A stretch of 64,000 bases of DNA, from positions 32,001 to 96,000 of the forward strand of contig JBJHCF010000004.1 in assembly GCA_050506795.1 (NCBI GenBank), written 5' to 3'. The notes below the pieces were generated by a model. The model saw only the letters and a program-made list of their open reading frames with translations, searched no databases and had not been told where the DNA came from. This stretch comes from Opitutia bacterium. GTDB lineage: Bacteria; Verrucomicrobiota; Verrucomicrobiia; Opitutales; T3Sed10-336. Each line of letters starts with the position of its first letter. Position 1 is the stretch's first letter. Positions 16,790-42,830 of this stretch are shown in pieces. Position numbers and translations under genes: made by a program.

Positions 16790-16882
16790 GGAGAGATGGC
16801 TGAGTGGCCGAAAGCAGTGGTTTGCTAAACCGCCGTACCGCCAAAAGCGGTACCGAGGGTTCGAATCCCTCTCTCTCCGCCA
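16790..16882 (+). tRNA. tRNA-Ser(GCT)
   Basis: GGAGAGA/TCTCTCC acceptor stem, anticodon arm gtggt-ttGCTaa-accgc, long variable arm, GGTTCGAATCC T-loop, encoded CCA. Confidence 0.97.
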
Positions 16883-16884
16883 TT
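16857..16884 (+). repeat. attL core, gggttcgaatccctctctctccgccatt
   Basis: Identical to 48885-48912. Confidence 0.95.
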
Positions 16885-16941
16885 TGTGATGGGCTTTTGC
16901 CTTAGATTTGCCAAAATGGAATGGCAAATCTGAGAAAAACC

Positions 16942-18282
16942 ATGGCAAAACCTAAGTTCAAGATCACCCCGTTCACCAACCCCAGCGGCCAGCGCGTTTA
17001 CCGTCTGTCTGGCACGCTCAACGGCAAGAGGATCCGTGAGAATTATCCGACTCGCCCCGAAGCCGTTGCAAAGCGTCAGGAATATGAGGTCGAGTGGCTC
17101 AACGACCATCCCGAGGGCCGCACGATCTGGACCACCTTGACTCCTGAGGAGAATCGCGACGCGGTCACCGCAATGAATTCCCTCAAGATGAATGGCGCTC
17201 CCTACTCGCTCAGCTTCGCCGTCAGTTACTGCCTGGAGAACTACCGGCCGCCGGAACAGGAGAAATCGATCAGCGAGGCAGCGGACGAGTATGTCAAGAA
17301 GCGGGACCGCGACTGCGTTCGCGAATTCATCTCCCAGGCGCAATTTCGCTCGATCAAATCCGAGATGCTTTGGCTCAAGAGCAAGTTCGGGAGCACGCCG
17401 GTTTCGGCCATCACCGTGGAAAAATTCCGCGACTACCTCGAAACTCCGCGCAACCGGCCGCGCAGCCGTCTCGTGAAAAAGGAGGTCACCGCTCCCAAGA
17501 CCTGGAACAACCGTCGGGGCCTTCTCTCGACCTTCTGTCTGTTCTGCGTCGAGCGCGGTTACCTCGCGCAAAATACGATCGCGAAGGTTCCCCAATTCAA
17601 GATCAACGGTCGCAAGTCCATGGCGAAAACGCTAACCGTCGATCAGGTCAACGAGCTGATGGAATACCTCGAAGCCTATGACGGGTCACCTATCCGCCGC
17701 CTCAAGGAGCCCCAGCCCGCCGGCTTCCTGGTTCCCTTCTTTGCTCTCGCTCTCTTCGCCGGCATTCGTCCGGATGCGCTCTACGGCGAAATGGGTAAGC
17801 TCCAGCCGGAAGACATCGACCTGAACATGGGCGTTGTCCGGGTTCGGCCCGAAGTCTCGAAGACCAACGAAATGCGCGTGGTGGCCATTCAGCCAAATCT
17901 TCGGCTGTGGTTGGAGAAATATCCGGTGGAAAAGTTTCCGCTTCTCCCGGGAAAGAACATCGTTCGCATCCTCTCCGAGGTCCGCCAGGAACACAAGATC
18001 GGCCATGACGTTCTCCGGCACACTTACATTTCGATGCTGGTCGGCGCTTTTCGTTCGGTCGGCGACGCCGCGCTCCAAGCAGGCAATTCCGAGGCGGTGA
18101 TTCGCAAGCACTACCTCGATTTGAAGTCGGTGGAGGAGGCCGATCAGTTTTGGCAGATCATTCCTGCCGGGACTGAGCTTCCCAAGAACTTCAAGAAAAA
18201 GGACGGTCGATACGCCTTTTTCAACAAACCGGAGAAGGACTCCGAAGGCGCAGAAGAAGCTGAAGAGCTGGCGTCGGTCTAG
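16942..18282 (+). CDS. tyrosine recombinase/integrase
   Basis: FAGIRP (R), SKT (K), HDVLRH, AGNS, KHY (Y); alternative ATG at 16921. Confidence 0.93.
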   Translation: MAKPKFKITPFTNPSGQRVYRLSGTLNGKRIRENYPTRPEAVAKRQEYEVEWLNDHPEGRTIWTTLTPEENRDAVTAMNSLKMNGAPYSLSFAVSYCLENYRPPEQEKSISEAADEYVKKRDRDCVREFISQAQFRSIKSEMLWLKSKFGSTPVSAITVEKFRDYLETPRNRPRSRLVKKEVTAPKTWNNRRGLLSTFCLFCVERGYLAQNTIAKVPQFKINGRKSMAKTLTVDQVNELMEYLEAYDGSPIRRLKEPQPAGFLVPFFALALFAGIRPDALYGEMGKLQPEDIDLNMGVVRVRPEVSKTNEMRVVAIQPNLRLWLEKYPVEKFPLLPGKNIVRILSEVRQEHKIGHDVLRHTYISMLVGAFRSVGDAALQAGNSEAVIRKHYLDLKSVEEADQFWQIIPAGTELPKNFKKKDGRYAFFNKPEKDSEGAEEAEELASV

Positions 18283-21844: not shown

Positions 21845-22762
21845 TCAGGTGACGCTGACCCGGCGGGCGCAAACCTTGGAGGTTACCTTGATGTCTTCGG
21901 TCCAATCCACCGCGAGGATGTCCGAGCGGTTGCTTTCGGCGCGGTAGATCCGGACGATGTCCACTCCCCCGCCGCGGGTGCGGAAGGTTTTCATGAACGA
22001 GGGATCGTAGACGCTCGGCGCTGCCTGGGCGATGAACAGGTAAAGCTCCGAGCCGATGATGTTGACGGCGTTCTTCGCCTTGCCGGGCTTTGCCGTGTCG
22101 GCGGACATGACGCCGACGCGGATGTCCAGGTTCGGGTTGAGCAGAAGGCTCGCGAACTGGGTCAGGGTGACGCCGACGCTGGCCGCTCCCGGGAAGCGTT
22201 TCACCACGGCCGGGTTGTGCCGGATGCGGCGCCACGCCGGAAGACCGATCGCCATGCGATTGGGCATCTGGCCGGTCTGGGTGGCCAGCTCTTCGATGAG
22301 TTGGTCGAGCTCGGCGACCGGGTCGTTGGTGTTGCTCGCGCCGTCCCATTGCCCCATGCCGCTGACGGCGGGAACGCTGGAAGCGGCGATCGAAAAGACC
22401 TTCGCTTCGTGGGCGACCTTGGCCCCGGAAACGAGGGTCCGGGTCTTGGCCTTTTCGAGGCCGAGCGGGTCGCCTTCTCCCGCTTGCCGGCGCTCGTGGT
22501 CGTCAATGGCGATTTCGAGCGCGTTCGGGTTGCAGTTGAAGAACGGATCCTCGGCTTCGAACTCCAGCCGGCGGGCGGGACCGCCGATGGCGCGGCGCGT
22601 ATCCGGGTTCTGGAACGCGTTTTTGTCGGAGAAGTCCTTGTATTGCCCGTTGGCGGACTGGACAACGACTTCCGGCGCGAGGAAGCTGGCGAGGGACGGC
22701 GAGCCGTCCTGCGAGAGCCCTCGGGCGTAGTTGGTGAGGGTGATGTTGAATTTAGAGGACAT
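21845..22762 (-). CDS. major capsid protein (HK97 fold inferred)
   Basis: 305 aa; follows protease and decoration genes; LTNYARG...LAPEV, WD...DPV, MPNRMAI patterns. Confidence 0.8.
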   Translation of the reverse strand: MSSKFNITLTNYARGLSQDGSPSLASFLAPEVVVQSANGQYKDFSDKNAFQNPDTRRAIGGPARRLEFEAEDPFFNCNPNALEIAIDDHERRQAGEGDPLGLEKAKTRTLVSGAKVAHEAKVFSIAASSVPAVSGMGQWDGASNTNDPVAELDQLIEELATQTGQMPNRMAIGLPAWRRIRHNPAVVKRFPGAASVGVTLTQFASLLLNPNLDIRVGVMSADTAKPGKAKNAVNIIGSELYLFIAQAAPSVYDPSFMKTFRTRGGGVDIVRIYRAESNRSDILAVDWTEDIKVTSKVCARRVSVT

Positions 22763-22814
22763 AGCTGTGGAATTTCAGATTTGAGATCGGAGATTGGAAA
22801 CGAGTGGTTGCGGG

Positions 22815-23213
22815 TTACGGTGCGATGAGGACGGCCTCGATCTTCTCTTCGGCGACACCGCCCTCCAGCGCCATGGCAACGCGTGGCGTGGTCGGTGCGT
22901 CGCTGCTGGCGACGAAGGCAACTTCGTCGTTGTCTTCGAAAAGACCGAGAAGCGTGCCGGTCTGGGTGACCGGGCCGAAGAGCTTCACGCGGACGGTTCC
23001 GGAGAAGCCTCCCCGCGCCGGGGCGACGGTGACTTGCTCACCGGCTTTCCCGCCTTTGAGAAGGACGCCAAACGGCGTCTGCTCGGCGTTGGTCAGAAGA
23101 GTGATCTCGTTCTGACCGGTGACGATGACTGGATAGCCCTCCTTGCCGGTAAGATCGATGGCTGCCTTGAATGGCAGGATAGCGTTTTCGCGAACAATGC
23201 CTACTTGGCTCAT
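22815..23213 (-). CDS. capsid decoration/cement protein (DUF2190-like)
   Basis: 132 aa, beta-rich, between protease and capsid; PFGVL, VAMALEGG. Confidence 0.65.
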   Translation of the reverse strand: MSQVGIVRENAILPFKAAIDLTGKEGYPVIVTGQNEITLLTNAEQTPFGVLLKGGKAGEQVTVAPARGGFSGTVRVKLFGPVTQTGTLLGLFEDNDEVAFVASSDAPTTPRVAMALEGGVAEEKIEAVLIAP

Positions 23214-23231
23214 AGCTGTGGATTCCTTTCT

Positions 23232-24350
23232 TTAGTTGAACAGTTCCGGGGCCTCGGCCTGGGCCTTGGCGAAGATGGTGTCGAAGGTGGCGGCCGGGTG
23301 AGCGGCGCGGAGATCGTTCAGCTTTTTGAGCTGAAGGGCCTCCTGGTTCTGGACGGGGCCGGTGCCCGCATCGCGTGCGGTGACGATGGTCGCGAAGGCG
23401 GGATTGACCGGAAGGGCCTCCAGGGCCTGCACGGCTTTCCCTTCATCGCGGATGAGAGCGTCGACCCAAAAGGTCTTGGCGTTTTCGTCCTTTGGCGCGA
23501 CGCGGCCGGCCTGAATGGCGGCATCGACGCGGGCCTCGGCTTTGGCTCGGATGGCGTTGTCACGCTCGGTTTCGAGAGCGGTCAGGCGTTCCTTCGCCGC
23601 CGCGAGATCGGCGCTGCTGGATTGCAGCGCGGTAACTTTGGCTTTCACCTGGGCGATGATGTCGGCTTCCTCCGTGGCGGAGGCCTCGACCAGCCCGAGT
23701 GTCACCAGATTCTTCAGTAGTTCTTTCATGGTTACGTGGTCTTCAGTTGCGGGTTGTGGATCTTGTCCCTTGGCGAACAAGGGCTGGATTCGTTTGAAGG
23801 CGGCGCGGTTTACAAGTCCGCCCATGTTGGTTTCGCTCCCGATGACGCGGCCTGCGGCATCGAGGAGAAAAGTCGGAGAAAAGCGCCGAAAGGCGCGGTC
23901 CTGGATGGCTTTCTTGCCGACGCCGGACCATTCGATCTTGGCGCGAACGCCGCCGGTCTTCGGGTCGTCGCCTCCCCAGAAGATTTTGACCGGCCATGCC
24001 GCGGCCTCGCGGTCGTCGTGATTGAAGTCGAAGAAGGGCTTGTCCTCGGCCCCGGCTGCGGCCAGCGCAAGCTGGCGGGTTAGCCAATCGGAGAGCGCGG
24101 TTGCCGTGGCCTGGCTGACCTCCACGTCGAGTTCGACCGGTTTGCCGGCGCGGGAGGCGCGAATGCGGTGACGGCCGGGCGGCATGTATTGGATCTCTTC
24201 GGGAAGTTGGTCCTCGGCCGGCTCTGGAAGAGCGACGGAGAATGCAGCTTTTACGGGCTCGCCCTTGGGCGGCGCGTAGGCCATGACGCCGTCGGGGCCT
24301 TCGGTCCATCCGGGATTGGAGGTTGGGGAGTTGTGATCGTGTGCGGTCAT
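23232..24350 (-). CDS. Mu gpI-like prohead protease with C-terminal scaffold
   Basis: MPPG, FDFNHD, AAAW, IEWS, FRRFSPTF, GLVNRAAF; helical C-terminus with VDAAIQAGRVAP. Confidence 0.85.
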   Translation of the reverse strand: MTAHDHNSPTSNPGWTEGPDGVMAYAPPKGEPVKAAFSVALPEPAEDQLPEEIQYMPPGRHRIRASRAGKPVELDVEVSQATATALSDWLTRQLALAAAGAEDKPFFDFNHDDREAAAWPVKIFWGGDDPKTGGVRAKIEWSGVGKKAIQDRAFRRFSPTFLLDAAGRVIGSETNMGGLVNRAAFKRIQPLFAKGQDPQPATEDHVTMKELLKNLVTLGLVEASATEEADIIAQVKAKVTALQSSSADLAAAKERLTALETERDNAIRAKAEARVDAAIQAGRVAPKDENAKTFWVDALIRDEGKAVQALEALPVNPAFATIVTARDAGTGPVQNQEALQLKKLNDLRAAHPAATFDTIFAKAQAEAPELFN

Positions 24351-24640
24351 TTCGGTTTCCAGATCAGAGCGATAGAACAGCGGCAGTTGGGATGAACGGG
24401 GGGAAAGCGTGTCCAATCCTTGCCGTAAAGAGTGCCGTGGAGAGCGCCGCATACAGAGCAAGTGCCTTCATCGAAGTCAGTGATCCAGACGTAGGTCTGG
24501 TTTGGATCGAGCGGAGGCGGCGGCTCGCCGTCGGGATAGGTGTAGAACCATCCGTCAGGGCCTTTAACCCAACCGGGATGGCGTTCCGATTCCCGAAGCG
24601 GTTCTTCCGCGTGTAGTGCTTGTTTGGCGACGTCATTCAT
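24347..24640 (-). CDS. minimal Mu gpF/SPP1 gp7-like head protein
   Basis: CSVCGALHG and PPVHPNCRC motifs in only 97 aa; overlaps both neighbours by 4 nt. Confidence 0.7.
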   Translation of the reverse strand: MNDVAKQALHAEEPLRESERHPGWVKGPDGWFYTYPDGEPPPPLDPNQTYVWITDFDEGTCSVCGALHGTLYGKDWTRFPPVHPNCRCSIALIWKPK

Positions 24641-26019
24641 TCAGTCCCGGGTCGAGGGTGAAGGGATTTTGGATTTTCGATTGCGGATTGCGGATTTGGA
24701 TTCGCGGGTGGGTTGTAGAGCACGTCCTCTTTGCCTGGAGCGGGAACCTTGTGGCGTTCGTAGAGCCACTGGCGGGAGACCGGCAGGGCCATATCGACGA
24801 AGAGTAGCTTGTCGCGCTCGACGAGCTCCTTGTCACGGGTAAGGCGCGGGATCTCGACTTCGATGTAGGGAAGCTCTTCGAGGTCGCCGTAGTTGAGCTG
24901 GATGATGGCGGGAATGAGCTGGTGATTGAGAACCTCGGCGACGTGGTTGGCGTAGCCTTCAAAGAGGTCGAGTTCGACTTCGCGGTGAACGCGGCCAAGA
25001 GCTTGCGTGCCTCCGCTTGCGGGAGTGTCGGACGTGAGAGTCTGGCCGAGGAAAAGAAGGTCGCATGCCTTGTCGGCGATGATCATCAGGCGCTCGTTCG
25101 GATCAGTGGGACCGGCTACGCCCGGAACGATGCCGTTGGACATGATGTTGATGTCGGTCCCTTTCGGGAACGCTCCCCAGGCGGATGCTCCCATCTGCTG
25201 GAGCATGTTGGCGATCAGTTGAACCTGACTGTCGGGGATGTGCTCGTCGTAGGTGGCGTAGCGGAGCGGGATCCCGAAAAGCTCCGTTTTCGAAAGCATC
25301 CACTCATAGCCAAGGAGGCGACCGAGCCAGAGCGGAGCGAGGGCGCGAAGCTGGGCGCAGGCGCCGGGGTTCGGAATGGTCGGCGGAAAGACCGAGAGAA
25401 GGAACTTGTTCGGGTAGCGGTCAAACGAGTGTGCTTCGTGGCGGTTTCGCTCCGGGTATAGCATCAGCCGGCCGGCGTGGGGATTGTGCATCGAGATGTC
25501 GAAGCCGAGGCAGGAGTAAGGAACGCGGCGCGTGCCGGTCGGGAGGATGAGTCGGTCACGAATTGCCCAATCAACCTCCAGCACGGTGACGCCCACGGCG
25601 ATGGAATCGACGAGGTTGCTGATCGTTTGGGCGAGGTTGATCTTGTTTTCGGCGAGATTCGTCGCGCCGCCGTGGAGAGCGGTTTCGATGAGGGAGGCGC
25701 GTTCGATGGCGCTGGCGGTTGGCTCCTTCCCCTTCGGACTCCATGGCTGAATGTTCCATGGGAGCTTGGTGACACTGACCTTGATCTTGTTGAGGTTCGA
25801 CCGGAGGCGCGGCCAGGTGTCGAACATGATCGAGAAAAGCTCCTGCTGACGCTCAAGGTCTCCCTGCAGTCCGGCGTCGAGCATGGCGCCCATGGTGTCG
25901 GGGTCGATGGAGCGACCCGAGAATATGTGACGGAAATCGAGGCCGGAAGGCTGGATCACCGGCTTGAGGAGCTTCCGTGGAGCGGCGTCTTTGGCTTTCG
26001 TGAGAAACGGGATTCTCAT
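24637..26019 (-). CDS. portal protein, DUF935 (Mu gp29-like)
   Basis: ELFGIPLRYATY, LFLGQTLTS, GTQALGRVH, LNHQLIPAIIQLNY. Confidence 0.9.
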   Translation of the reverse strand: MRIPFLTKAKDAAPRKLLKPVIQPSGLDFRHIFSGRSIDPDTMGAMLDAGLQGDLERQQELFSIMFDTWPRLRSNLNKIKVSVTKLPWNIQPWSPKGKEPTASAIERASLIETALHGGATNLAENKINLAQTISNLVDSIAVGVTVLEVDWAIRDRLILPTGTRRVPYSCLGFDISMHNPHAGRLMLYPERNRHEAHSFDRYPNKFLLSVFPPTIPNPGACAQLRALAPLWLGRLLGYEWMLSKTELFGIPLRYATYDEHIPDSQVQLIANMLQQMGASAWGAFPKGTDINIMSNGIVPGVAGPTDPNERLMIIADKACDLLFLGQTLTSDTPASGGTQALGRVHREVELDLFEGYANHVAEVLNHQLIPAIIQLNYGDLEELPYIEVEIPRLTRDKELVERDKLLFVDMALPVSRQWLYERHKVPAPGKEDVLYNPPANPNPQSAIENPKSLHPRPGTE

Positions 26020-27392
26020 CAGTTACGCCCTCCAAAGGTTGCGCCCGCCGTGTAGATCGAGCGGAAGCGGGTTGGCGTCGGGACGAACCGCGAGGGATTG
26101 CCGCCGATCTGGAAGGCGTTCGGTTTTGGCGCGGATCCGGTTCCGCCGTGGCGGGCTGCGGCATGCAGGGCCAACGCGAGGGCGGTGGAGCGGTCGGCGT
26201 GGCCGTCGGCCGTTCGTGCGGCGGTGTATCGAATGTTTCCGGACGGGGAAACGATCCGTTGCAGGCTGGCCAGATCGTCGCGCAAGCGTGCGTCGAGAGG
26301 GATTTTGATCGTGCCTTCCTGGAAGTGTTTCTTGGCGCGAATGAACAGCTCGCGTTTGCTCTCCGCAGAAAAGGTAACGGGGTCGAGCTTGTAGTCGCCG
26401 AGGGTATCGGCCAGGTGCTCGGAAATCGGTCCGCCGATACCCGTCGCGTCGATGGCGGAATAGGTGGCGCGTTGCAGGCGCGGCGTGAGAGCCGCTTCCT
26501 GCTCCGGGAAAGGGACGCCGTCGAGGATTAGGATTTCGCGGGTCCAGAACGTGCCGTTGACCGCTTCGACCGTCCAGCAAACGGTGAGGTCGCGCTTGCG
26601 GCCGATGTCGACGCCGACGAAAACTGGGTTTCCGGTGAGAGCGTTCCAATCGTGGGAAGCAGCGGAATCCTCGGCAGCAGTGATGAGATCGCGGGGGAAG
26701 ACCTGGGCGCTCTCTGCCATGAACTGGCACTCGAACTCCTGCGACCATCCATCAGGATCGTTCAAGTTGGCGCGAAGCTCGTCGATGTTGACGGCGAGTC
26801 CGGCCTCTGCCGCATCGTAGATGGTGGTTTTGTGACGGGAGAAGTCGGCTCCGTTTTCCCACAGGTCGAAGTATTTGTTGTTCATCCCGGCCGGCGTGGA
26901 GATCACGCGCAGCTTGAGCCGACCGCGAAGGGGATTGGTGATGATCGGATAAACCGCCCTCCAGATGTCCTCGGGCTTTTCGTGGAAGGCGAACTCGTCC
27001 AGGACGAGATTGCCGGAGTAGCCACGGGCGGTGGAGGGATTGGCCGGGAGCGCGATTAGACGAGCACCATTGGGAAAGCGGCACTGGCTGGCTTTCGTTT
27101 CGGGGCGGTATTCCTGGCCGGTTTCGAAGGAGATCGCATCGCAGAAGACGGCGGCGGCCTGGTGGACCTTGGCCATAAATTCGAGAGCCTGCCGTTCACC
27201 GGCGGAGAGGATCACCCAGTCGCCACCCGTTTCGAGTGCATCGGCGACGACCTCGAACGCGGTCGCGAGCGATCCGCCGATTTGCCGGGATTTGAGCCAG
27301 ATCTTGAAGCGGGTCCGGTCGTTGACCCAGCTGCGCTGATACGGGAGCAGGAGGTCGAAGGGAGATACCTTCAATTTCGGACGTTTGCTCAC
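26019..27392 (-). CDS. terminase large subunit (Mu gp28-like)
   Basis: LLPYQ, KSRQIG, TARGYSG, LDEFAF, VISTP, QEFECQF, GVDIGR, IDATGIG, GHAD. Confidence 0.93.
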   Translation of the reverse strand: MSKRPKLKVSPFDLLLPYQRSWVNDRTRFKIWLKSRQIGGSLATAFEVVADALETGGDWVILSAGERQALEFMAKVHQAAAVFCDAISFETGQEYRPETKASQCRFPNGARLIALPANPSTARGYSGNLVLDEFAFHEKPEDIWRAVYPIITNPLRGRLKLRVISTPAGMNNKYFDLWENGADFSRHKTTIYDAAEAGLAVNIDELRANLNDPDGWSQEFECQFMAESAQVFPRDLITAAEDSAASHDWNALTGNPVFVGVDIGRKRDLTVCWTVEAVNGTFWTREILILDGVPFPEQEAALTPRLQRATYSAIDATGIGGPISEHLADTLGDYKLDPVTFSAESKRELFIRAKKHFQEGTIKIPLDARLRDDLASLQRIVSPSGNIRYTAARTADGHADRSTALALALHAAARHGGTGSAPKPNAFQIGGNPSRFVPTPTRFRSIYTAGATFGGRN

Positions 27393-27889
27393 TCCTTAGC
27401 TCCTACTGCTCCAAGTCGGTCGCGCCAGCTTTGGAGAATTTCACGCTGGTCGGCCTGGTTGATGTTAACCTCGGTCTTGACGAGGGCCGTCGGGCGGTCG
27501 GCGTAGACGTCCGGCTTGTGGCTCTTGAGGAGGAAGATCAAGCAGGCGTCGGAAAACTTGCGCTTGTATCCACAAAGGTTGCCTTTGATGTCAAAGACCG
27601 GCTCTTCCCAGCCGTCGACCGCACGGCGATGGAGCTCCTGTTCGGCGGATTCGATCCGCTGGACGTTCTTAACGCGGTCGCGTTCAAGTTGGGCGGCCTG
27701 GAGGCGCGGCGTCAGTTCGGGGCGACGGGTGAGGTTCCTGTAGAAGTTGCGCGGATTTAAGCCCTCGCGCTCAATAGCTTCGTAGGTGGGTTGGCCGTCG
27801 AGGATGTTTGCGAGGACGCGATCAAAAAGCGCTTCCGAGAATTTCGAAAGCCTGCCGGCTCGTTTTGCTACTGCCGTTTGCCTTGCCAC
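27389..27889 (-). CDS. terminase small subunit
   Basis: N-terminal HTH, ELHRRAVDGWEEPVF...KFSDACLIFLLK; GTGA overlap with terL. Confidence 0.8.
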   Translation of the reverse strand: MARQTAVAKRAGRLSKFSEALFDRVLANILDGQPTYEAIEREGLNPRNFYRNLTRRPELTPRLQAAQLERDRVKNVQRIESAEQELHRRAVDGWEEPVFDIKGNLCGYKRKFSDACLIFLLKSHKPDVYADRPTALVKTEVNINQADQREILQSWRDRLGAVGAKE

Positions 27890-28029: not shown

Positions 28030-28506
28030 ATGTCTGAAAAATCGAGCAGGTGTTGTGATGAGGCGTCCAAAGGTCCCTTCGATGAAGTTCTGGGCTGTCC
28101 TCGTTGTGGCCGCAAGGGTCGCCCGGTCTCCGAATTGACGGTAAAGCAGCAGGTAGCACCGGAACATTTGGAGGCGGCAAGCGGCGAAGGGAATCAGTTC
28201 TGCGGGACTCCGGATTGCGCGGTGGTGTATTTTGTCGCTGGGGGGCAGGTCTTCGAGCAGAAGGATCTACGGCAGAAAGTTGGGTTGAAGGACCGTTCAG
28301 ATCCGTCCCCGGTTTGCTACTGCTTTGGGTTTACAAGGAGGATGGTGGAAGATGAGGTTCGGTCGACTGGCAGGAGCACGATTCCGGACCGCATTGCCCG
28401 CGAAGTGAAGGCAGGAAACTGTGCGTGTGAGGCGCGGAATCCACAGGGGAGTTGTTGCCTTGGGAATGTGACGGCGGCGGTGAAAGAGGCGGAACGTGGG
28501 GGTTGA
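28030..28506 (+). CDS. Cys-rich Zn/[2Fe-2S] metallochaperone (CopZ N-terminal domain-like)
   Basis: CPRCG, FCGTPDCAVVYF, VCYCF, CACEARNPQGSCCLGNV. Confidence 0.85.
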   Translation: MSEKSSRCCDEASKGPFDEVLGCPRCGRKGRPVSELTVKQQVAPEHLEAASGEGNQFCGTPDCAVVYFVAGGQVFEQKDLRQKVGLKDRSDPSPVCYCFGFTRRMVEDEVRSTGRSTIPDRIAREVKAGNCACEARNPQGSCCLGNVTAAVKEAERGG

Positions 28507-28509
28507 TCG

Positions 28510-30490
28510 TTGTTGGACCCTCGCGGGGCCATAAACGCCGCGACGTAAAAACGCGTGTAGAGGCGCGGAGCGCCGCTGGCAACGACGAGCGGGCGTTAGC
28601 CCGCGAGGAGGCGCAGCGAGGCCGTTGTCGGCCGAGCGGAGGCCGCGGGGCGAGGCCGCGGAACTGGGGGCGCGGAGCGCCTAGGCGTTCTATTGGCGCG
28701 GCGAAGCCGCTGGTGATTGCAGGCGCGATAGCGCCGTGCGAAGCTGCGAAGCAGCGTAGCGAAGGGCGCTGCCAGGGGCCGCCCCAGGCGCTGGCTGAGC
28801 CAGCGCGTCAGCGCGAGGCGAAACAGCGCGGGGCCACCGCGCCGGGAGGCGGGGGGAAGGCGCCCCTTCCATTCACATTAAGGGGCGCCGCCTGGCGTCG
28901 AGGAGATCAACGGTAGCGATAGCGAGTGAAACGGGGGAGGTTCGCGACGGCGAGGGTCGTGTGGCCGTTCCGCCGACCAGGGCGGGGGCTGGGGGATATA
29001 CTGATTTCAGGCCCCGAGCGAAGCGAGAGCGAATGCGTGGGCCGTGCAACGACGAGTCTTCGAGGAGGCGCAGGGAGCCTTAGCGACCGAAGTTCGCCCG
29101 GGTTAGGCGGGCGAAACTGGGGGCCGGTCCGGATAGCGGCTGGTGAGGGCTCTGCCACAGACGGGTCCCGGGTGGATGGGGTGAGCCCTCGCTGCCTGCG
29201 CCGGGGCGGCCTAGGCCCTACTCTACTGGAGCGAAGCGACAACTGACTCGAGCCCCCGGAGCGGAGCCGGAGCAGACGCCCAGTCCCGCAAGCGCACATG
29301 ATCATCATATGTCAAAAATCCGCCGGAAGAAGGAATACCTGGACTGATGGAGGAAAAGTGAACACGTCAGGATCTTCGGCATATGATCCTCATGTGCGGT
29401 CCCGCTTTTTGGGACGAACTGGAGGGAAGCAGGAAGCATGACACCGGCTTGCCGGTGGCGCGATGCCTGCGAGGGCGTCTGTTCCGGCGGAGCGGAGGGG
29501 GCTTTCCGGGGTTGGGTGTGAGTGAGCTTGCGAACGAACTGGTAGAAGTTTCGAGCGGGAGCGAGCGTCAGCCTTCCCGGCGATTGAGGGTCCAAAGCGG
29601 TCGGCAGCGCGTCGCCGGGGCGAGGCGGATGGGTTGGCGGAGGGCGTTTCCCGGCGTGGCGCTGCTGGTGACTTTCAGCGCCGGAAGGAGCGGTCTGAGG
29701 CGGAGTCTTCGGAGCCTCTGTCCGCGACTCGGCGCCAGAGGGGCGTTCGATTGCAACCGGGGCGAGCAGTCGCTGGCGGATGGTGACCAGAGCGTAACGG
29801 AGCGTCCGGCGTAGCGCAGGGTGGAGCGTAGGGGTGCAGTAGTCCGGTTGCCCGAAGGGTCGCGTAACACGAGGGGACGCGGTGAGCGAAGCCTGTCGCC
29901 GTTAGGCGTCTGGCGAAGCAGCGGCCAATCGTGTTACGCGCCGGACTTCTGCATCCCGAAGCGGAACCCGGAGCGGAGTCGGAAAGCGGCGTGGAGCGAC
30001 GGGAGCGATCGGCCAGCGTCTGCGGTTGGATTGTCCCGAACCGAGCGACCGGAACAGTCGCTCCGGATGCGAGGTATCGAGCAGAAGGAGTGTCTGTGGA
30101 GGGAGCGGCCGGATTACCCGTCAGGGTTGGCGAGGGCGTTCGATTGGAACGGGATCGAGCAGTCTCGGGCCCGCTGCGAGGGAGACCGGGCGAGCGATTA
30201 GCCGCCCAGGTTCGACTAAGCGAAGGGGCCGAGTCTGCGGTTGGATTGTCCGAGGACGAGCGACCGGAACAGTCGCTCTGGAGTGAGGAACGAATGGAGG
30301 AGCGTCTGTGGAGGGAGCGGGATTGCGCCCGTCAGGGGTGGGACGTTGACTTGCAACCGAATCGAGTGGTCGCTGAAGGAAGGGGCGGCGGCGCTAAGGG
30401 CCGTTGCTGCCTTTGGCAGCTGATGGCCCGTGCGGCGACGAACCGACCGGAAGCGTCCACGGTTGGATTACCCGGGGCCGTTCGCTCCGT
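28510..30490 (+). other. ~2-kb non-coding, highly foldable single-strand tract
   Basis: No credible ORF; dense hairpins with GNA/GNNA loops, nested long stems, three repeated modules. Confidence 0.75.
30018..30337 (+). repeat. imperfect ~105-bp direct repeat (30018-30126 and 30233-30337)
   Basis: Shared blocks gtctgcggttggattgtcc, cgagcgaccggaacagtcgctc, gtctgtggagggagcgg, cccgtcaggg. Confidence 0.9.
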
Positions 30491-30955
30491 TTATTGCACG
30501 CCGTGGCGGTTAGCCGCTTGCTCCTCGCGGGCATGTTCCGCGAAGCTATCGGCCAAAGCCAAGACCTCTTCCGGGGTTGGGCTTCTATCGGTTTCAGAGA
30601 AGGCCACCGGACATACCAGCCAGTGAACCGCACGCAAAAGATGGTCGGAGATGAGGGAGGCTGAGCGGCCACGAACCGCAAATTCCCCAGTGTTGAAAAG
30701 CTCCATGTGACGAGACAAATACGTGCAGACCGTGGCAATTGCCGAACCCCGCTCCAATCTGTCGATGTCGTTCGAGTAGGTCTCGTGCATGTAATCTCTG
30801 ATCTCGAGGACATCCGTTACATAATCACGCTTTGTTCCTTCCGGACAAGGACGCCTGACCGCTTCAAGATCTCTCACAAATTCGGAGAACGGATACTGGT
30901 AGCGCGAATTGGCCACTGCGGAGCTCTTCTGACTGTCGCTTTCTGCTCGATTCAT
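30491..30955 (-). CDS. hypothetical protein
   Basis: 154-aa ORF (MNRAES...) with protein-like composition at the end of the early operon. Confidence 0.5.
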   Translation of the reverse strand: MNRAESDSQKSSAVANSRYQYPFSEFVRDLEAVRRPCPEGTKRDYVTDVLEIRDYMHETYSNDIDRLERGSAIATVCTYLSRHMELFNTGEFAVRGRSASLISDHLLRAVHWLVCPVAFSETDRSPTPEEVLALADSFAEHAREEQAANRHGVQ

Positions 30956-31016: not shown

Positions 31017-31289
31017 CTACAGGCGCTTGCGCCAATCGGGATTCCTGGCAATCCAGTCGAGGGCGGCGGCGAGCGTTGTGCGGTTGGCGGGCATTGGGAA
31101 GCCGGCTCTGCGCATTCGATAAACGTAGGTGGGATGATGTTTCAATTGCCAGGCCAGTTCCTTGGCAGTGAGCAAGGGTCCGGTCGTGAGGAGATCGACG
31201 GAATTGAGATTCTCCGCGTCCCGCTTCGTCGATGCGTGGCGTCGCTCGATAGAATTCTGGGCTTCGGATTTGAGATTGGAAGTGGTCAT
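31017..31289 (-). CDS. small HTH DNA-binding protein (AlpA/excisionase-like)
   Basis: LLTAKELAWQLKHHPTYVYRMRRAGFP. Confidence 0.65.
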   Translation of the reverse strand: MTTSNLKSEAQNSIERRHASTKRDAENLNSVDLLTTGPLLTAKELAWQLKHHPTYVYRMRRAGFPMPANRTTLAAALDWIARNPDWRKRL

Positions 31290-31385
31290 TGCGAACTGGA
31301 GATTTGAGATTCGAGATTTTGGATTTGAGAAATGCCCTCTCTCGGAGGGTGGAATTGGAAAGTTCCCTGGCCAGTCTCGCGACAG

Positions 31386-31469
31386 TGACACTCCCCTAAA
31401 GGGGAGGTGTCATGTGTCGCGGTGACGGGTTTTGCGATGTGTCGCAATAGGTGTCGCGCAAAGTGTCGC
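31386..31469. repeat. hairpin plus four GTGTCGC direct repeats, putative replication origin
   Basis: tgacactcccc-taaa-ggggaggtgtca; GTGTCGC at 31414, 31439, 31451, 31463. Confidence 0.6.
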
Positions 31470-31501
31470 GGAGAGTCTGGACGGAATTGATCGACCATGG
31501 C

Positions 31502-32647
31502 TTATGCGACGATTTCTTCGCCTTTTTTGGTGAGTTTGTAGCCGTCTTTGCCGGTTCGAAAATAGCCCTCTGTCTTTCCTTTGAGCAAAACGCGCTGCAG
31601 GGAGCGCTTTGAACCGGCGTCGGGACCGCCGAGAGCATCATGGATTTCGCCTATTTTTTTTGCTCCCTCGTGGATCGCGCCCGCGACTTCCGCGAGGCTA
31701 AAGTTGGCGTTTGATCGCTTGCCTTCGACGTCGTCTTTCCATGCCTGGAGGTCGAATGTCGGGTCGATGCCGTAGAGCATCGTCTCTTCGGAGAGCTTCA
31801 AACCGACGGGATCGAAAGGCTTCGCGTCGTTCGATTTTCCGCAGGAAACAACGATGCGGCTCGGGTCGTCCGGATCGGCGGGGGCGATGTTGATCTGCGA
31901 GCGGCAACCCGAATAAAGCGCCTTCGAGCCGAGACCGAAGTTGGATTTATCCCACCCCACCGCCTGGGCGATGTTCTGCCGGCCGGTGCGCCCGTGATGA
32001 ACGATTACGATGGCTGTATCCTGATTGGAACGACGGCAGACCTTGGTGATTTCGCGGAGTGTGTGCCGGATGTCGGCGTCCTTGTTGATGTCGCCGATAT
32101 TCACCTCGCCGAAAGGATCGATGTAGATGACATCGGGTTTGATCAATTCGAGGGTGTCGAGCCACTTCTTTTTGATGTCGTCAGCGCCAAGACAGATAAA
32201 GGCGTCGTCGATCTCGCGAACGACGTGAAAGAACGTGTGTGTTCCGACCAGGCGTTTCTGCTCGGGCGTAAGGCCGCGAGTCATCCGTTGGTAATCGTGT
32301 TGAAGTCGGTGGATGCTGTTCTCGGTGCCGATTAGAAGGTGGCGTAGCGGTTTTTGATAGGTGGACAGGCCGGCGACGGGCCAGCCGAGGATTTGGGAAA
32401 TGGCAATCTGCATCGACAGTCGGCTTTTCCCAGTGCCGCCCTGGCCGACCATGTTCGTCTGCTGTCCGAGGGCAATGACGCCGTCGCCGAGGACGTTTAC
32501 CTTCGGCGGGAGCTTGATCGTGTCGAGCTGATCTCCGGTGAAAACCGTGTAGGGCTTCGGCGGAGGGTTGGTCGAGTTCTCGGCGGCGGCGAATTGGGGA
32601 TCCTCGGTGGCATCCCAGATTTCTCGTGGTGTTTCTGGCTCGTTCAT
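31502..32647 (-). CDS. AAA_25 / RepA-type (RecA-fold) helicase
   Basis: Walker A GQGGTGKS, IGTEN, Walker B IYIDP, IVHH; possible C-terminal wHTH. Confidence 0.82.
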   Translation of the reverse strand: MNEPETPREIWDATEDPQFAAAENSTNPPPKPYTVFTGDQLDTIKLPPKVNVLGDGVIALGQQTNMVGQGGTGKSRLSMQIAISQILGWPVAGLSTYQKPLRHLLIGTENSIHRLQHDYQRMTRGLTPEQKRLVGTHTFFHVVREIDDAFICLGADDIKKKWLDTLELIKPDVIYIDPFGEVNIGDINKDADIRHTLREITKVCRRSNQDTAIVIVHHGRTGRQNIAQAVGWDKSNFGLGSKALYSGCRSQINIAPADPDDPSRIVVSCGKSNDAKPFDPVGLKLSEETMLYGIDPTFDLQAWKDDVEGKRSNANFSLAEVAGAIHEGAKKIGEIHDALGGPDAGSKRSLQRVLLKGKTEGYFRTGKDGYKLTKKGEEIVA

Positions 32648-33516
32648 GCGTGGGAAATGGGTTCGATGTTGAAATGAAGGATGTCCTGGCGAACTCCGGT
32701 ATCGCGTCGACCGCCGGGCAGACGGACCAGTTTGGCAGGATCCCATAGCGTGGGATCGGCCCCGAGAAAGACTGCGTGACGGAAGAAGCGGAGCTTCCCG
32801 TATTCGGATAGTCCCTCCACGAGGAACCAGCCGTGCAGGGATTTGCCTCCGGACCAAACGACGAGGATCAGGGGCCTCTGCTTGGAATGAAGCGAGGAAA
32901 GGATCGCTGCCTGTTCCCGAAGCGTTCCCCGGTCGAACTCGATAACTTGATACCGACGGCTGCGGGTCGCGTTATCGTGACAGCGCGGAGATGGTTTGCC
33001 GGACTGATTGATTCCGGTGGGTGCCGTCATCGCGTTGGCCACGATGAACTGCATGTTCGATTCGAGGCCGCGCCATTTTTCTCGCGGTTGTGTCTGGGCA
33101 CTGCGGGTGTCGAGCGCGAGGCACAATAGCGCGTCTGTTGGATAGAGGCGGTCAATGACTTCTTCGCTGGTCACATCGACTGGTGTGGACCCGAAAAGAA
33201 TAGGGCCAGCCTTCCGCCGATCCCAGGCATCCTGATTGAAAGGAGGCCACGGCAAGGCGGGTTTGGTCGGTCGCGGTAAAACCGGGCCTCCTGTTTCAAA
33301 CGCCCGCTCGACAGCGCGTGCGATCTCGGGCCGGAAGTCGCGGTCGCCCCATCGAGTGGCGACCGCTTCCAGAACGAGGCGGATCTTTTCCGGCGAGGCG
33401 TAGTGGCGAGCATTTCTTGCGACGGTGAAGAACCAAAGGTTTCGATTGCCGGGAGCGGGAGTCTGCTCAAGGAGTTCGGCTAGGGAGCGTGGTAAAGGAT
33501 CAAGTGTGGCCATCAT
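32644..33516 (-). CDS. primase, archaeo-eukaryotic/RepB'-like
   Basis: VIEFD, SGGKSLHGWF, LVRLPG; ATGA-coupled to polymerase and helicase genes. Confidence 0.72.
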   Translation of the reverse strand: MMATLDPLPRSLAELLEQTPAPGNRNLWFFTVARNARHYASPEKIRLVLEAVATRWGDRDFRPEIARAVERAFETGGPVLPRPTKPALPWPPFNQDAWDRRKAGPILFGSTPVDVTSEEVIDRLYPTDALLCLALDTRSAQTQPREKWRGLESNMQFIVANAMTAPTGINQSGKPSPRCHDNATRSRRYQVIEFDRGTLREQAAILSSLHSKQRPLILVVWSGGKSLHGWFLVEGLSEYGKLRFFRHAVFLGADPTLWDPAKLVRLPGGRRDTGVRQDILHFNIEPISHA

Positions 33517-35348
33517 TTGCAGTAGGTTTGGGTTTCGATGCCTTCGGCAGCCACGGGCAAGCCGGGCATCCATGCTGGTGTCTGGGCGAGCAGGTTGGTC
33601 ACCTGCTCGACACCGATGCCGGAGTCTTCCGGCACTTCGCAGATCACTTCGTCGTGAACTGTCCAAAGGATGCGAATACCCGCGTCATGAATTCGGAGCA
33701 GGCCTTCGGCGAAAACATCCCGTGCGGTAGCCTGGACGAGGTTTTCGGTCAGCTTCCCGCCATACCAATGAAGACGGGGGCCGCCTCGTTCGGTTGCGGC
33801 CGTCAGTCCGTCCTCGTCGGCTACGTCGAAGTAGCGGATAACGCGATGCGACGGCAGGCGCATGTGAAACGTGTGACCAGCGTGGCGGCGCATCGATTCC
33901 TCCAGCGAGGCCCAGAAAGCAACCGTTGCAGGGTTGGCTTTGCGGAAGTCGTTCACCGTCGCCCGGGCCTCGGAATGGGAGATTTCGAGGCCGTAGATCT
34001 TGGCGAGGTTCTTGAAGGTCGCGGCGCCCGCGCCGTAGCCCAAGCCGATGACGCGGCATTTGGCGAGGAGGTAGAGACGGGGGTTTTCCTCCTTGAGCTT
34101 GCCGCCCGTCCACCCCATCGAAACCTCCGCGTGCGCCTGGTAGATAGGCAGGCCGTCGGCAATCTTTTCAAGAAGGTCGCGATCTCCGACCATCCACGCG
34201 AGCACTCGCGGTTCGATCTGCGAGAGGTCGGCGGTGATCAGCTTGTGCCCCGGGCGAGCACGAAGGCAGCGGCGTGGGTCGACGCCGTGAAGCGGCTCGC
34301 GGTTGAAGTTTTGGAAGTTCAATCCCGCGTCTCCGGCCCAGCGGCCGGTGGCGATGGCTCCGAAGTATTTCAGGCTGAAAGGGAGCGTGCTATCGGGGCG
34401 ACACCGGTCGCGCATTGTTTCGAGGAGCCGAAGCATCCGGTTCGACTTTCTCCAGTTGCGGATGTGGCCAATCCATGGAAAGCGTTCGCCGTAGCGATGC
34501 TCCCATTCTTCGCAGGCCGGATCGTCCTCGCTCGTCGAGGGTGGAGGCGGAAGATTGTGCCGCCCACATTCGATGGCGAGAGCCTTCGTGCTGGTCGGCT
34601 TTTCGCGGCCAGCCCACGGGAGAGCCCGTTCTGAATCCGCGCATTGTTGGGCGAGAATCGCAATGCCGGCGTCGACGGCTTTGCGGTCGAGATAAACGCC
34701 ATGCTCGCCCTGCTCCACTGTGAGACGCGAAAGACGCCGTTCCTGAGCGGGCCAGTGAAGCGAATACCCAAGCCATAGATCGCATGCGAGCTTGGCGTCT
34801 TCGAGCGCGTAGCCGAGAAGCTGGTCGTCCTGGAGCAAAGTGCGCGATTGGAGCCAATCGGTTCCCTTCATTGCTTTGCGAATGGCCTTGTTTGGCTTCC
34901 GTCCCAGAAGGTGCTGAGCAGCACCCTCCAGATTACGCGGGGCCTGGAGATAGACCGCGAGAGCGGCCGTGTCGTGCCATTCCCGCGGGGCGACATCAGC
35001 CGGGGCGATTCCGAGCTCCTGGAGCCGGGAGAAGACGGCCCGGTCGAAGCGGCTGTTGTGCGACACCCAAATGCACCCGGAGAATTCGTGCCATGGGCAT
35101 TCCTTTGGGTGACCAACGAATTGACCGTGAGGTCCCCAAAAAGAGACCAGGTAGCAATCGAATTTCTTGTCGGCGACGTAGCGGTCGACGCCAACGGCCT
35201 TCAGGTCGTAGCCCTTGCAATAGAAGGTCTCGGTGTCGAAACCGTAGACCCTATTGTCGGTAGCTGTAACCATATTCGGACCAGAGGTCCGTGATGGCAG
35301 ACTCAATTCCATCTGCGGCGAGGGTGTGAAGTTGGTGGAAGCGTTCAT
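33513..35348 (-). CDS. phage-type family A DNA polymerase with 3'-5' exonuclease
   Basis: ExoI FDTET, HNSRFD, YALED; TGRWAG, motif A DLSQIEPR, motif B AK...LGYG, motif C VHDE. Confidence 0.93.
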   Translation of the reverse strand: MNASTNFTPSPQMELSLPSRTSGPNMVTATDNRVYGFDTETFYCKGYDLKAVGVDRYVADKKFDCYLVSFWGPHGQFVGHPKECPWHEFSGCIWVSHNSRFDRAVFSRLQELGIAPADVAPREWHDTAALAVYLQAPRNLEGAAQHLLGRKPNKAIRKAMKGTDWLQSRTLLQDDQLLGYALEDAKLACDLWLGYSLHWPAQERRLSRLTVEQGEHGVYLDRKAVDAGIAILAQQCADSERALPWAGREKPTSTKALAIECGRHNLPPPPSTSEDDPACEEWEHRYGERFPWIGHIRNWRKSNRMLRLLETMRDRCRPDSTLPFSLKYFGAIATGRWAGDAGLNFQNFNREPLHGVDPRRCLRARPGHKLITADLSQIEPRVLAWMVGDRDLLEKIADGLPIYQAHAEVSMGWTGGKLKEENPRLYLLAKCRVIGLGYGAGAATFKNLAKIYGLEISHSEARATVNDFRKANPATVAFWASLEESMRRHAGHTFHMRLPSHRVIRYFDVADEDGLTAATERGGPRLHWYGGKLTENLVQATARDVFAEGLLRIHDAGIRILWTVHDEVICEVPEDSGIGVEQVTNLLAQTPAWMPGLPVAAEGIETQTYCK

Positions 35349-35354
35349 CGCAGG

Positions 35355-35579
35355 TTACCTTTTCCGGGGGTTGACGGTGCAATTTTCCTCCAGCGCCTGC
35401 CGGACGTTCGCCACGTCGAAGCGAACGAGGTGTCCGATTTTGACGTAAGGAATTTTCCTTTGCGCCTGCATCTGGCGAACCCAACGCAAGGAGGGTCTGC
35501 TGGTTTCGTCGAAAAGGGCTTCGAGGAGCCCGTGAGCGTCTACGAGTTTGGTCGATGGAATGTTGGTCGAAGTATTCAT
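35355..35579 (-). CDS. HTH_17/excisionase-like protein
   Basis: SLRWVR...KIPYVKIGHLVRFD. Confidence 0.75.
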   Translation of the reverse strand: MNTSTNIPSTKLVDAHGLLEALFDETSRPSLRWVRQMQAQRKIPYVKIGHLVRFDVANVRQALEENCTVNPRKR

Positions 35580-35696
35580 GATCTGGTGTCATTTATGAGA
35601 AAGTGATGAGTGGTTGGCGGTGGTCCCGATCACCCCCCGGCGTATGCCGGAGGATGACGGGCGTTCACCTATAGTCGGCGATACAACCAGCGGGCG

Positions 35697-35984
35697 TTAC
35701 AGCCGCAGGAAGTCGTCCGAATGAACGAGGATCCAGAAGCCGGGGCGGTTGCGTTCGGAGAGGCAAACGACCGGCGTTTTCTTTTCGGGAGTCGCGAGTT
35801 TCTTCGCCTCGTCCCAGGTGCGAATCGCGGCGAAGCGTTCACGCTGCTTACACTCGATGAAGAGCGTCGGGTGAAGCGTGTCGGAGCGGGTGAGCTTCGA
35901 GTTGCCTCCCGAGAGCGCGTTCCGCTCGGTCTTGAAGAACCTGGCGACGCGGCGCTCGAATGCCTTCCAGCACTTATCGGCCAT
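35697..35984 (-). CDS. small PD-(D/E)XK nuclease (Holliday-junction resolvase-like)
   Basis: KAFERRVA, SD, IECK; start MADKCW. Confidence 0.65.
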   Translation of the reverse strand: MADKCWKAFERRVARFFKTERNALSGGNSKLTRSDTLHPTLFIECKQRERFAAIRTWDEAKKLATPEKKTPVVCLSERNRPGFWILVHSDDFLRL

Positions 35985-36798
35985 TGGGTGCCTCCCTCCC
36001 GTGCGAGCGTGGATCGTATCCCTTCTGGTGGCGCCACATGGCGCATGCCATTTTGAATACTTCCCATTCAGCGAGGAGCTGCCGGGGCCCGTAGCTGACA
36101 ACCTCGACGCGGCCCGGCTCCGTTGTGCTGATGAACACGTTCGCGCCGTAGAGGCGTCCGAGGTTTTCTTCGCCCCAGTAAGTCGCGCCGTAGGCGGCGA
36201 TCTGCATTGCCTGCCCGTCGTAGGCGGTCACGGCGAGGCCGGGTTTGGTTTTGCGCGTCTTGAAGTCGATCACGCCAATCCCGTTGGTGCCGTAGCGGCA
36301 GGCGACATCCATTGTTCCGGCGAAGCCTTCCCTTTGGTTGACGAGGCAGAGCTCGCGCTCGACGAACTGGATCTGTTTGGCTTGCTGCCACGCGATCACC
36401 GGGCTGGTGTAGACTTCCAGATCCGGCGGGACCGGGACGCCGTCGAAGTGCTTTTCGAGAGCGTCATGGATCCGACTGCCGAGATCGGCGGCCTGCTCGA
36501 CCTGGGCGAAGGCTTCCTCGATGATGCGGTCGGCGAGATAGTCGTCGCTTTCGCCCTCGGTGCGGTTGAGCCGCATCGAGGCCAACGCGACCTGCTTCAT
36601 CTTCCACTTGTCGAGTTGTGGCTTGGCAAAAATCCCGAGGATCGAAGTGACGCTCGGATAGAGCCCGAGGCGTTTCGCGTCGCGGATCGTCGTCGGCCGG
36701 AGCCCATCACCGCCCGCCTTGGGCAGGCGGTGACAGGGCGTTCCGTCGGCTTTATACCAGTGCGAGGACTGGACTTGGTCTTTCTTGAGAACGGCCAT
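35974..36798 (-). CDS. PD-(D/E)XK exonuclease (phage recombination type)
   Basis: PSVTSIL, GSRIHDALE, FAGTMD, IDFKT, QIAAY. Confidence 0.8.
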   Translation of the reverse strand: MAVLKKDQVQSSHWYKADGTPCHRLPKAGGDGLRPTTIRDAKRLGLYPSVTSILGIFAKPQLDKWKMKQVALASMRLNRTEGESDDYLADRIIEEAFAQVEQAADLGSRIHDALEKHFDGVPVPPDLEVYTSPVIAWQQAKQIQFVERELCLVNQREGFAGTMDVACRYGTNGIGVIDFKTRKTKPGLAVTAYDGQAMQIAAYGATYWGEENLGRLYGANVFISTTEPGRVEVVSYGPRQLLAEWEVFKMACAMWRHQKGYDPRSHGREAPNGR

Positions 36799-36815
36799 GG
36801 TCGATTTCCTCCGGG

Positions 36816-37382
36816 TCAGAACGGGCAGTTATCGTCGGAATCGACTTCCGGGTTCCACGCGGCGTGAGGCGCGGGAGCCGGAGTCGCTTGTGGGGCCGGG
36901 ACGGCAGGCGTCTGCGGTGTCACCGGAGCCTTGGCGAAGGCCGCGAGCGGAAGGACCTGGCTCTTCAGCTGGTCGATCACCGGAGCAATGCCAACGATGT
37001 TGGCGAAGGTCCGGGTGCCGTCGCGGGAGGTCTTTTGGCCGACCGTGATCATCGCGCCCGCGCCCTTCAACTCGCAGTAGTCCCAGCCGTATTTCGGCGG
37101 GTGGCCGAGCCATGCGGTGAGGAACTTGAAGAGGTTCGACTTCGGCGATCCCGAAATGCGAAACTCGTGGGTCTGCACCCTGTAAATGCGGCCGTCCTGG
37201 CCGCGAAAGCCGAAGAGGAAACGGGTAATGTCGAGCGTTTCCTTCTCAGCAGGATTTTCGAACTTTGGGCGCTCAACGCCGAACTGGTCCTGGATTTCCA
37301 GGCATGTCGCGATTGAGGGCCCGGAGGGGGCGACTTCGGTGATGTCGAACCCGCTCGATTCTGGTTGTTTGAGTAGTGCCAT
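36816..37382 (-). CDS. putative phage ssDNA-binding protein
   Basis: Beta-rich core, Pro/Ala linker, acidic tail DSDDNCPF. Confidence 0.65.
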   Translation of the reverse strand: MALLKQPESSGFDITEVAPSGPSIATCLEIQDQFGVERPKFENPAEKETLDITRFLFGFRGQDGRIYRVQTHEFRISGSPKSNLFKFLTAWLGHPPKYGWDYCELKGAGAMITVGQKTSRDGTRTFANIVGIAPVIDQLKSQVLPLAAFAKAPVTPQTPAVPAPQATPAPAPHAAWNPEVDSDDNCPF

Positions 37383-42812: not shown

Positions 42813-42830
42813 CACTAAGAGGACCACGGA

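Follow-up and report, generated by a model that had tools for sequence, protein, structure and literature searches.

The window analysed here, a 64,000-nt stretch of DNA from an Opitutia bacterium, carries a 32-kb element (positions 16857–48912) that lies between identical 28-nt repeats and is inserted at tRNA-Ser. Its modules are given in Table 1; the label of the small HTH-like gene comes from reading the sequence, with no library match. No tail genes and no HNH gene were recognised in the 32 kb, and a complete relative in another genome (G544), which runs from terS through to a tRNA-Ser integrase, likewise lacks tail genes. Adaptor or connector genes were not recognised in complete elements either, although small adaptor genes could have been missed. 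No rolling-circle Rep family was found among 23 element ORFs (Pfam/PHROGs) or 10 (NCBIfam), several ORFs being without assignment, and the element ORFs include no Y1 transposase family. Nearly all of the close terS relatives whose records carry a name belong to Opitutales or unclassified Verrucomicrobia, and among 401 genomes from the phylum a terS profile matched five, every one of them in the order of the window. In the relatives, almost all head genes are separated from one another by inserted cargo genes. In the window, metal-handling cargo comprises a CopZ-like zinc-binding protein (27964–28506) and an RND efflux set with a heavy-metal P-type ATPase (40678–48684).

Between the small HTH-like gene of the replication arm and terS lies a non-coding tract, separated from terS by the CopZ-like cargo gene. 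Across the family of elements this tract is 1.2–2 kb long and gene-free, and no ORF inside it has protein-level relatives among the loci studied. Searches with TerL and TerS gave 131 loci with a near-full terS, falling into 51 clusters; the motif counts in Table 1 refer to the 33 clusters with at least 1.5 kb of upstream sequence and were made with strict patterns that miss visible variants. The word GCGNAGC occurs 14 times on the + strand of the window's tract and not once on the − strand, with ∼0.8 expected, many of the copies being rungs of the ladders described below rather than hairpin caps. The G-runs of motif D could possibly form a G-quadruplex in the single-stranded form; as for motif D serving as a KOPS-like polar signal, the GC-skew orientation of the contigs inflates all G-rich words. 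A helix joining both ends of the tract was considered and found no support in the folds of three tracts. By BLASTN the tract had no match in 50,697 phage and 72,556 plasmid records, and in 61 related genomes it gave one short match besides that in the host genome (G000).

Table 1. Features of the element and of its non-coding tract (positions in the window)
Feature	Position	Strand	Description
attL	16857..16884	+	3' end of tRNA-Ser; attR identical, 28 nt, 48885-48912
Tyrosine integrase of element	16921..18282	+	no integron-integrase match
Mu-like head module	21845..27889	-	terS (27389-27889), terL, portal, F-like, protease, major head protein
Non-coding tract	28547..30500	+	~2 kb; array is its 3' third; folds on the strand antisense to the element's genes
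Motif A	28547..28560	+	A-tract and near-palindrome (CGCGYG), 5' boundary of tract; 25/33 upstream regions
Motif C	28826..28897	+	hairpin with G-run bulge; best conserved block; 26/33 upstream regions
Motif D	28980..28995	+	conserved unpaired G-runs; 24/33 upstream regions
Inverted pair of dif-like sites	29290..29399	+	forms a hairpin; 7-nt central regions in both copies
Unit 1 (long class)	29741..30032	+	TTG-N10-GAG foot, 4-bp stem, T·T, ~250-nt ladder hairpin, GGTTGGATT tail
Spacer 1	30041..30109	+	long hairpin: GC, GA/GA, CC/GG, GGA/GGA, ACAG-T·T stem
CCC-GTCA-GGG hairpin after spacer 1	30117-30126	+	
Unit 2	30134..30247	+	80-nt hairpin
Spacer 2	30256..30321	+	fold as in spacer 1
CCC-GTCA-GGG after spacer 2	30328-30337	+	
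Unit 3	30341..30469	+	95-nt hairpin, GTGG/CCAC base
Replication arm	31017..37382	-	HTH-like gene, AAA_25 helicase, primase-like protein, PolA, excisionase, resolvase, exonuclease, NGO0469-like protein

The array at the 3' end of the tract (29741–30469) had been described, in a sequence-only reading, as three units with a conserved paired base, a T·T mismatch and compensatory changes, linked by a repeated spacer. Every motif quoted there is present where it had been placed. The arms pair at 29766/30012, 30159/30229 and 30366/30452, with the T·T pairs at 29770/30019, 30163/30234 and 30370/30456; the change from CA/TG to TG/CA on both arms of unit 3 is real, as is the repetition of the spacer (copies at 30043 and 30258). 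Stems of the form 4 bp–T·T–4 bp occur eight times in 28500–30520, a count that takes in cross-pairings between the two spacer copies, compared with a mean of 0.41 and a maximum of 3 in 200 dinucleotide shuffles. Since the spacer fold contains a T·T stem of its own, the array holds five such stems, not three. A pattern for the unit base had three matches in the 4.9-Mb host genome, all of them in the array. We also considered a sigma-70 single-stranded promoter (Frpo-like) in each unit: its TTG..A foot is similar to a −35 box, but the sequence after it contains no −10 box, and the idea was dropped.

Related Opitutales elements carry the same tract with one to four units. A finder based on the flanks only, whose patterns were written after the sequences had been viewed, located 36 left/right pairs in 21 of 45 regions (1–4 units each), and 30 of the 36 have a perfect 4-bp base. 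Stem positions 2–4, which played no part in detecting the units, form on average 2.58 of 3 Watson–Crick pairs, compared with 1.48 ± 0.14 when the arms are cross-paired (0 of 2000 trials as good; 24 distinct arm pairs), z-scores being overstated here because the homologues are related. One doubtful unit was dropped, and the 29 units kept show seven different 4-bp bases. The T·T mismatch, constant in the window, is not invariant across the family: 24 of the 29 units have it as the fifth or sixth position of the stem, and the other five have G·G. Pairing is retained in homologous units, with double changes at paired positions, which bears out the earlier proposal that the structure is under selection. 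The idea of a conserved base carrying different inserts also held, the inserts ranging from 43 to 340 nt. We conclude that a conserved non-coding tract of 1.2–2 kb has the array as its variable end.

The inserts themselves have a regular architecture. An alignment of 13 homologous long units yielded 60 consensus pairs, 43 of them with double changes; these are 13 of 17, three near-duplicates and one unit with a long insert having been left out and one unit (from locus L042) added by hand. In the predicted folds of 28 distinct units, 115 of 120 3×3 internal loops are GNA/GNA, as against 2 of 38 in shuffles, and 22 of 52 2×2 loops are GA/GA. Because the 3×3 loops are nearly all GNA/GNA, the unit insert can be described as a ladder of 2-bp helices and GNA/GNA rungs. 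Loops of the GNA/GNA type have precedent in DNA.

Some tracts have been reshaped recently. Locus L130 (6300–7100, minus strand) shows a recent tandem expansion to about six copies of a ∼80-nt T·T-stem module, L175 has undergone a similar expansion, and L155 contains an almost exact duplication of 256 nt. A much longer, rearranged tract with tandem ∼250-nt repeats (L200:7050-11300, G059:C146) adjoins a D5-type primase and iteron-like GTGAC repeats. The recent exact duplications in L155, L175 and L130 are what would be expected if the array had arisen neutrally, by tandem duplication within sequence rich in G. That explanation is hardly credible, being contradicted by compensatory changes across divergent elements, by the fixed order of the blocks and by their fixed polarity.

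The spacer folds differently from what had first been proposed. The hairpin gagcgac/gtcgctc can be drawn in the window, but it is not a conserved fold: 53% of alignment cells are paired, 194 of 500 shuffles do as well, and none of 18 homologous spacer-like modules has it, so that it is specific to the window. The conserved fold is the long hairpin of Table 1, with 94% of cells paired, double changes in 9 of 14 pairs and no equal among 500 shuffles. This alignment comprised eleven short modules, namely 10 of the 19 flank-only matches and the window's second copy. As the unit inserts vary so much in length, a covariance model was built for the spacer only. It gave 47 matches in 54 sources at E≤0.05, the weakest of which may be due to chance, and matched 4 of 151 genomes of the order, the host genome included. 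No match was found in rRNA, the F plasmid or loci L039–L041, L043 and L050.

Of these 47 matches, 46 run antisense to terS or to the genes for replication. In the remaining one (L182) the block is inverted together with the HTH gene relative to terS, and L185 looks alike; the polarity therefore follows the HTH/replication arm rather than terS. The suggested co-occurrence with the window's primase/PolA clade fails, since the tract is found beside three different primase types: the window's own primase (with or without PolA), a CHC2-zinc-finger primase and a D5-type primase. The closest primase/PolA/helicase relatives (63–79% identity; G035, G124 and G190, loci L039–L041) have neither terS nor a match to the spacer model. 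A search of viral contigs with the primase as query left none of 18 candidates confirmed.

The usual position of the tract, directly upstream of terS, raises the possibility that it acts as the folded end of the genome during packaging, closure of the head or entry, replacing the head-completion and tail proteins that seem to be missing. Complete elements encode heads with no tail genes and with no adaptor or connector recognised, both of which cf-PICIs need (bioRxiv 2025.02.11.637232), and the closest primase/PolA relatives without terS also lack the tract. However, the inversion seen in L182 and L185 places the tract, along with the HTH gene, away from terS; the tract is kept where terS is absent (locus L042; genome G247); and L050, whose terS is 96% identical, has no tract in the 4.5 kb upstream. 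Considering also that terminases package double-stranded DNA and that small adaptor genes may have escaped recognition, we regard a genome-end role as quite improbable.

The block at 29290–29399 resembles a pair of chromosome dimer resolution sites. Using the dif sites predicted for Verrucomicrobia by Kono et al. (PMC3025954), we found a single candidate host site (G000:C39:41768-41795; L203:1500-1527), with near-identical sites in G035 and G042; it is likely the chromosomal dif and is intact. Host-type dif sequences were found only in these three loci. Compared with the host candidate, the two arms in the window have 7+8 and 6+7 matches of 11+11. Inverted pairs of such dif mimics, 45–115 nt apart, occur in 19 of the 33 upstream regions as against 3 of 1612 3-kb bins of the host. 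Their central spacers measure 6/7 (10 cases), 7/6 (5), 7/7 (3) or 7/8 (1), and never 6/6. The XerC-side bases covary between the two copies and are mostly unlike those of the host, which has TAT where the mimics have TGT, TCT, TAG, CTC, AAT, GAT and others. The commonest right arm, TTATGCCGA (9 nt), also opens an inverted pair in plasmid pT181 at position 3772; this pair, which is not annotated in the record, is presumably ssoA/RSB.

Similar arrangements were noticed elsewhere. A mini tract in the host genome (G000:C23:79190-79460; L199:9190-9460) combines a dif-like hairpin having 5/5 spacers with a G-run motif and one unit-like base. It borders a cargo island, which has an XerD-like recombinase at its end and contains toxin/immunity-like ORFs (labels from reading). 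Further inverted dif-like pairs, with loops of the GTGAGCT(T/C)TGCGAAC type, occur at borders between host genes and foreign DNA (G000:C29:65551-65666, L228; G103:C10:6553-6659, L225). In G042, direct-repeated dif-like sites within larger repeated non-coding blocks (C1:3837809, 3838401 and 4323093; L216, L217 and L220) resemble pdif-type modules.

In phage CTXphi, attP(+) is formed by two dif-like sites in inverted orientation, which have non-standard central regions and pair with each other on a single strand (PMC4246890). The tract could accordingly be read as a folded single-stranded recombination platform, on which the dif-like hairpin would serve XerC/D in joining or resolving copies of the element and the units would act as attC-type sites. 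Besides the shared design of inverted mimics with non-canonical spacers, this reading draws on the 6-nt centre that one copy retains in 15 of 19 cases and on the similar hairpins at the edges of cargo islands in G000:C23, G000:C29 and G103. Integron attC sites are laid out with an AAC/GTTRRRY R-box and 5/6 unpaired bases, and all three units in the window end in GTTRRRY with AAC opposite. Across the family, however, only four of the 29 units keep AAC together with GTT, and three keep GTTRRRY; no element ORF matches an integron integrase, and there is no ORF between units. The host dif candidate is unoccupied, the element, which encodes an integrase, is inserted at tRNA-Ser, the XerC-side bases are mostly not the host's TAT, and recombination by Xer would account for one hairpin but not for the ladders. 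A recombination platform is in our judgement distinctly unlikely.

A test for unit-length small RNAs, put forward in the sequence-only reading, presupposes an RNA. We counted loops in 27 tracts, using fixed 1100-nt windows and stems of at least 3 bp, and compared them with shuffled sequences. cGNAg triloops (95 versus 21 in shuffles) and GNYA loops (39 versus 13) are in clear excess, the former partly as a by-product of ladder rungs, whereas GNRA loops are not (30 versus 31) and cUNCGg shows a small excess (8 versus 3.6). With stems of at least 2 bp, GNRA is mildly raised (135 versus 107). The host's 16S, 23S and RNase P RNAs behave differently, with GNRA at 13 versus 3.5, cUNCGg at 5 versus 0.2 and cGNAg at 3 versus 1.8. 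In folds made with RNA parameters, the ratio of GNRA to GNYA plus GNA among terminal loops is 0:7 in the window, 16:40 in 16 tracts and 16:6 in rRNA. DNA mini-hairpins of the GCGNAGC/GCGNNAGC type are described as far more stable as DNA than as RNA, as binding SSB poorly and as occurring at the G4 and ssiA priming sites (Kimoto and Hirao, PMC13037366). No excess of mini-hairpins was seen in the single-stranded DNA controls, namely intergenic stretches of the F-plasmid leading region, pT181 and pUB110. The loop signature therefore separates the tract from rRNA and is not a general mark of single-stranded DNA.

The principal alternative is a large structured non-coding RNA, transcribed antisense to the element's genes like the prophage RNAs GOLLD and ROOL, with the units as repeated RNA domains. 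Its size, its multi-domain covariation and its setting in a prophage with a tRNA are reminiscent of those RNAs. The + strand of the array folds better than the − strand, and it folds best as RNA: z-scores for 29740–30500, from 20 shuffles each, are −7.6 (RNA, +), −4.7 (DNA, +) and −4.4 (RNA, −). Tandem G·A pairs are stable in RNA as well. The window's tract also has one promoter-like match (29359–29387), and one terminator-like match directly follows unit 3 (30473–30489), neither being above shuffles. Four RNA-library runs yielded contigs over parts of a homologous tract, but the flanking genes are covered alike and the contigs may reflect DNA carry-over. Against an RNA stand the failure of Rfam models to match the tract, whether at gathering score or at E≤5, the lack of a U-tract at the end of the homologous tracts, loop counts at stems of at least 3 bp that are unlike those of host RNAs, and a dif mimic, which is the target of a DNA recombinase. 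Telling single-stranded DNA motifs from RNA motifs by computation is described as difficult (Weinberg et al., PMC5737381). On balance, the DNA-type loop caps, unlike those of host rRNA, together with inverted dif mimics that are never spaced 6/6, favour single-stranded DNA. We consider that the tract probably folds as single-stranded DNA rather than RNA, and that a non-coding RNA is rather unlikely.

If the tract does fold as single-stranded DNA, a role as a priming platform has in our estimate a slightly better than even chance. Taken without that premise, the explanation that we prefer, at a little short of an even chance, is a large platform resembling a single-strand origin, where host enzymes are predicted to restart copying of an exposed strand. 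Replication of the excised element would displace the folding strand of the tract, whose ladders of 2-bp helices and GNA/GNA rungs, closed by mini-hairpin caps, would fold quickly and resist coating by SSB. Each unit would then bring together, at the base of its hairpin, two sequence-conserved G-rich feet (TTG..[G/T]AG and GG[G/T]TGG), so that hairpins of any length above the feet could present a priming enzyme of the host, either RNA polymerase or a primosome, with a landing site repeated along the array. XerC/D or RNA polymerase would attach to the dif/RSB-like hairpin. Copies of units and spacers are multiplied and reordered, likely through recombination or slippage at the shared feet. That the tract is common to three primase types points to host enzymes. 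Set against a platform like a single-strand origin are the dsDNA-type terminase encoded by the element, the lack of a rolling-circle initiator among the ORFs searched and the length of the tract, ten times that of known single-strand origins (ssos).

A more far-reaching idea is that an ornate, kilobase-scale natural single-stranded DNA built from the GNA/GNA ladder is a working part of a tail-less virus-like element. Such a DNA would serve, for instance, as the folded end of the genome by which the head is closed or delivered, or would be set free as a scaffold to capture XerC/D and polymerase of the host. We regard this as a long shot; if true, it would be a DNA counterpart of the large structured RNAs. 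More generally, single-strandedness of the tract would mean an unrecognised single-stranded step in the life cycle of the element and would provide a natural sequence family for the GNA/GNA ladder, whereas an RNA would constitute a new large phage RNA family. The tract thus offers a direct test case of whether loop statistics can separate single-stranded DNA motifs from RNA motifs. Whichever reading applies, it is a real, undescribed structured nucleic-acid family: no description of it was found in Rfam, in phage and plasmid collections or in literature searches, most subscription papers being outside the reach of the last. Its carriers form a family of tail-less elements with Mu-like heads in Opitutales, of which the searches made likewise found no description.

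As a whole, the element resembles the cf-PICIs in having an integrase, a replication module and head genes but no tail. These are described as 10–18 kb long (bioRxiv 2025.02.11.637232); the element differs in its Mu-like head set, in the lack of a recognised HNH, adaptor or connector gene and in its 32 kb with cargo. With GOLLD, ROOL and the plasmid motifs ARRPOF, GEBRO and PAGEV, of which GEBRO has been proposed as possibly single-stranded DNA (PMC5737381), the tract shares a large covarying structure and a prophage or replicon context. It differs from them in having no Rfam match, in its DNA-type loop caps and in a modular array of variable copy number. The units are unlike REP/REPIN sequences, since the GTAG foot occurs in 13 of 29, there are no dispersed copies in the host genome and no RAYT partner was seen, the element ORFs including no Y1 transposase family. 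The array is comparable to integron attC sites and to the DUF1874 motif (PMC5737381) as a repeated hairpin with a conserved base and a variable terminal structure; the units depart from attC in having an R-box in 3–4 of 29, unpaired bases arranged 8/1 instead of 5/6, and neither IntI nor gene cassettes.

Like CTXphi attP(+), the tract has inverted dif-like sites 45–115 nt apart with non-canonical centres; unlike CTXphi and other IMEX, the element integrates at a tRNA gene by its own integrase and leaves the host dif empty, its XerC-side bases mostly mismatch that site, and it has dsDNA-type packaging genes. Ssos are described as strand-specific hairpins of about 160 nt with a recombination-site stem that is bound by RNA polymerase, the stem (RSB) being required for that binding (PMC8860593, PMC5703833). 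A CS-6 sequence in the loop is a further feature of ssos. The tract is comparable to ssos (ssoA/U/T/W with RSB) and to ssi/G4 sites as strand-specific hairpin DNA in a mobile element. Its recombination-site-like stem shares the 9-nt arm with pT181, and its mini-hairpin caps are like those of the G4 and ssiA sites. It differs in being ∼10 times longer and multi-domain, with a variable array and no rolling-circle Rep found, and the pT181, pUB110 and F controls are without its GNA/GNA ladders. On the features tested, the tract belongs to none of sso, IMEX, attC, REP or any Rfam family. The folded single-stranded signals compared here (sso, ssi, attP(+) and attC) are simple hairpins of about 40–200 nt, and a covarying modular structure of 1.2–2 kb with DNA-type caps would be unexpected in elements that package their DNA by means of a terminase. 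Judging from these comparisons, the tract would work most like a single-strand origin combined with an attP(+).
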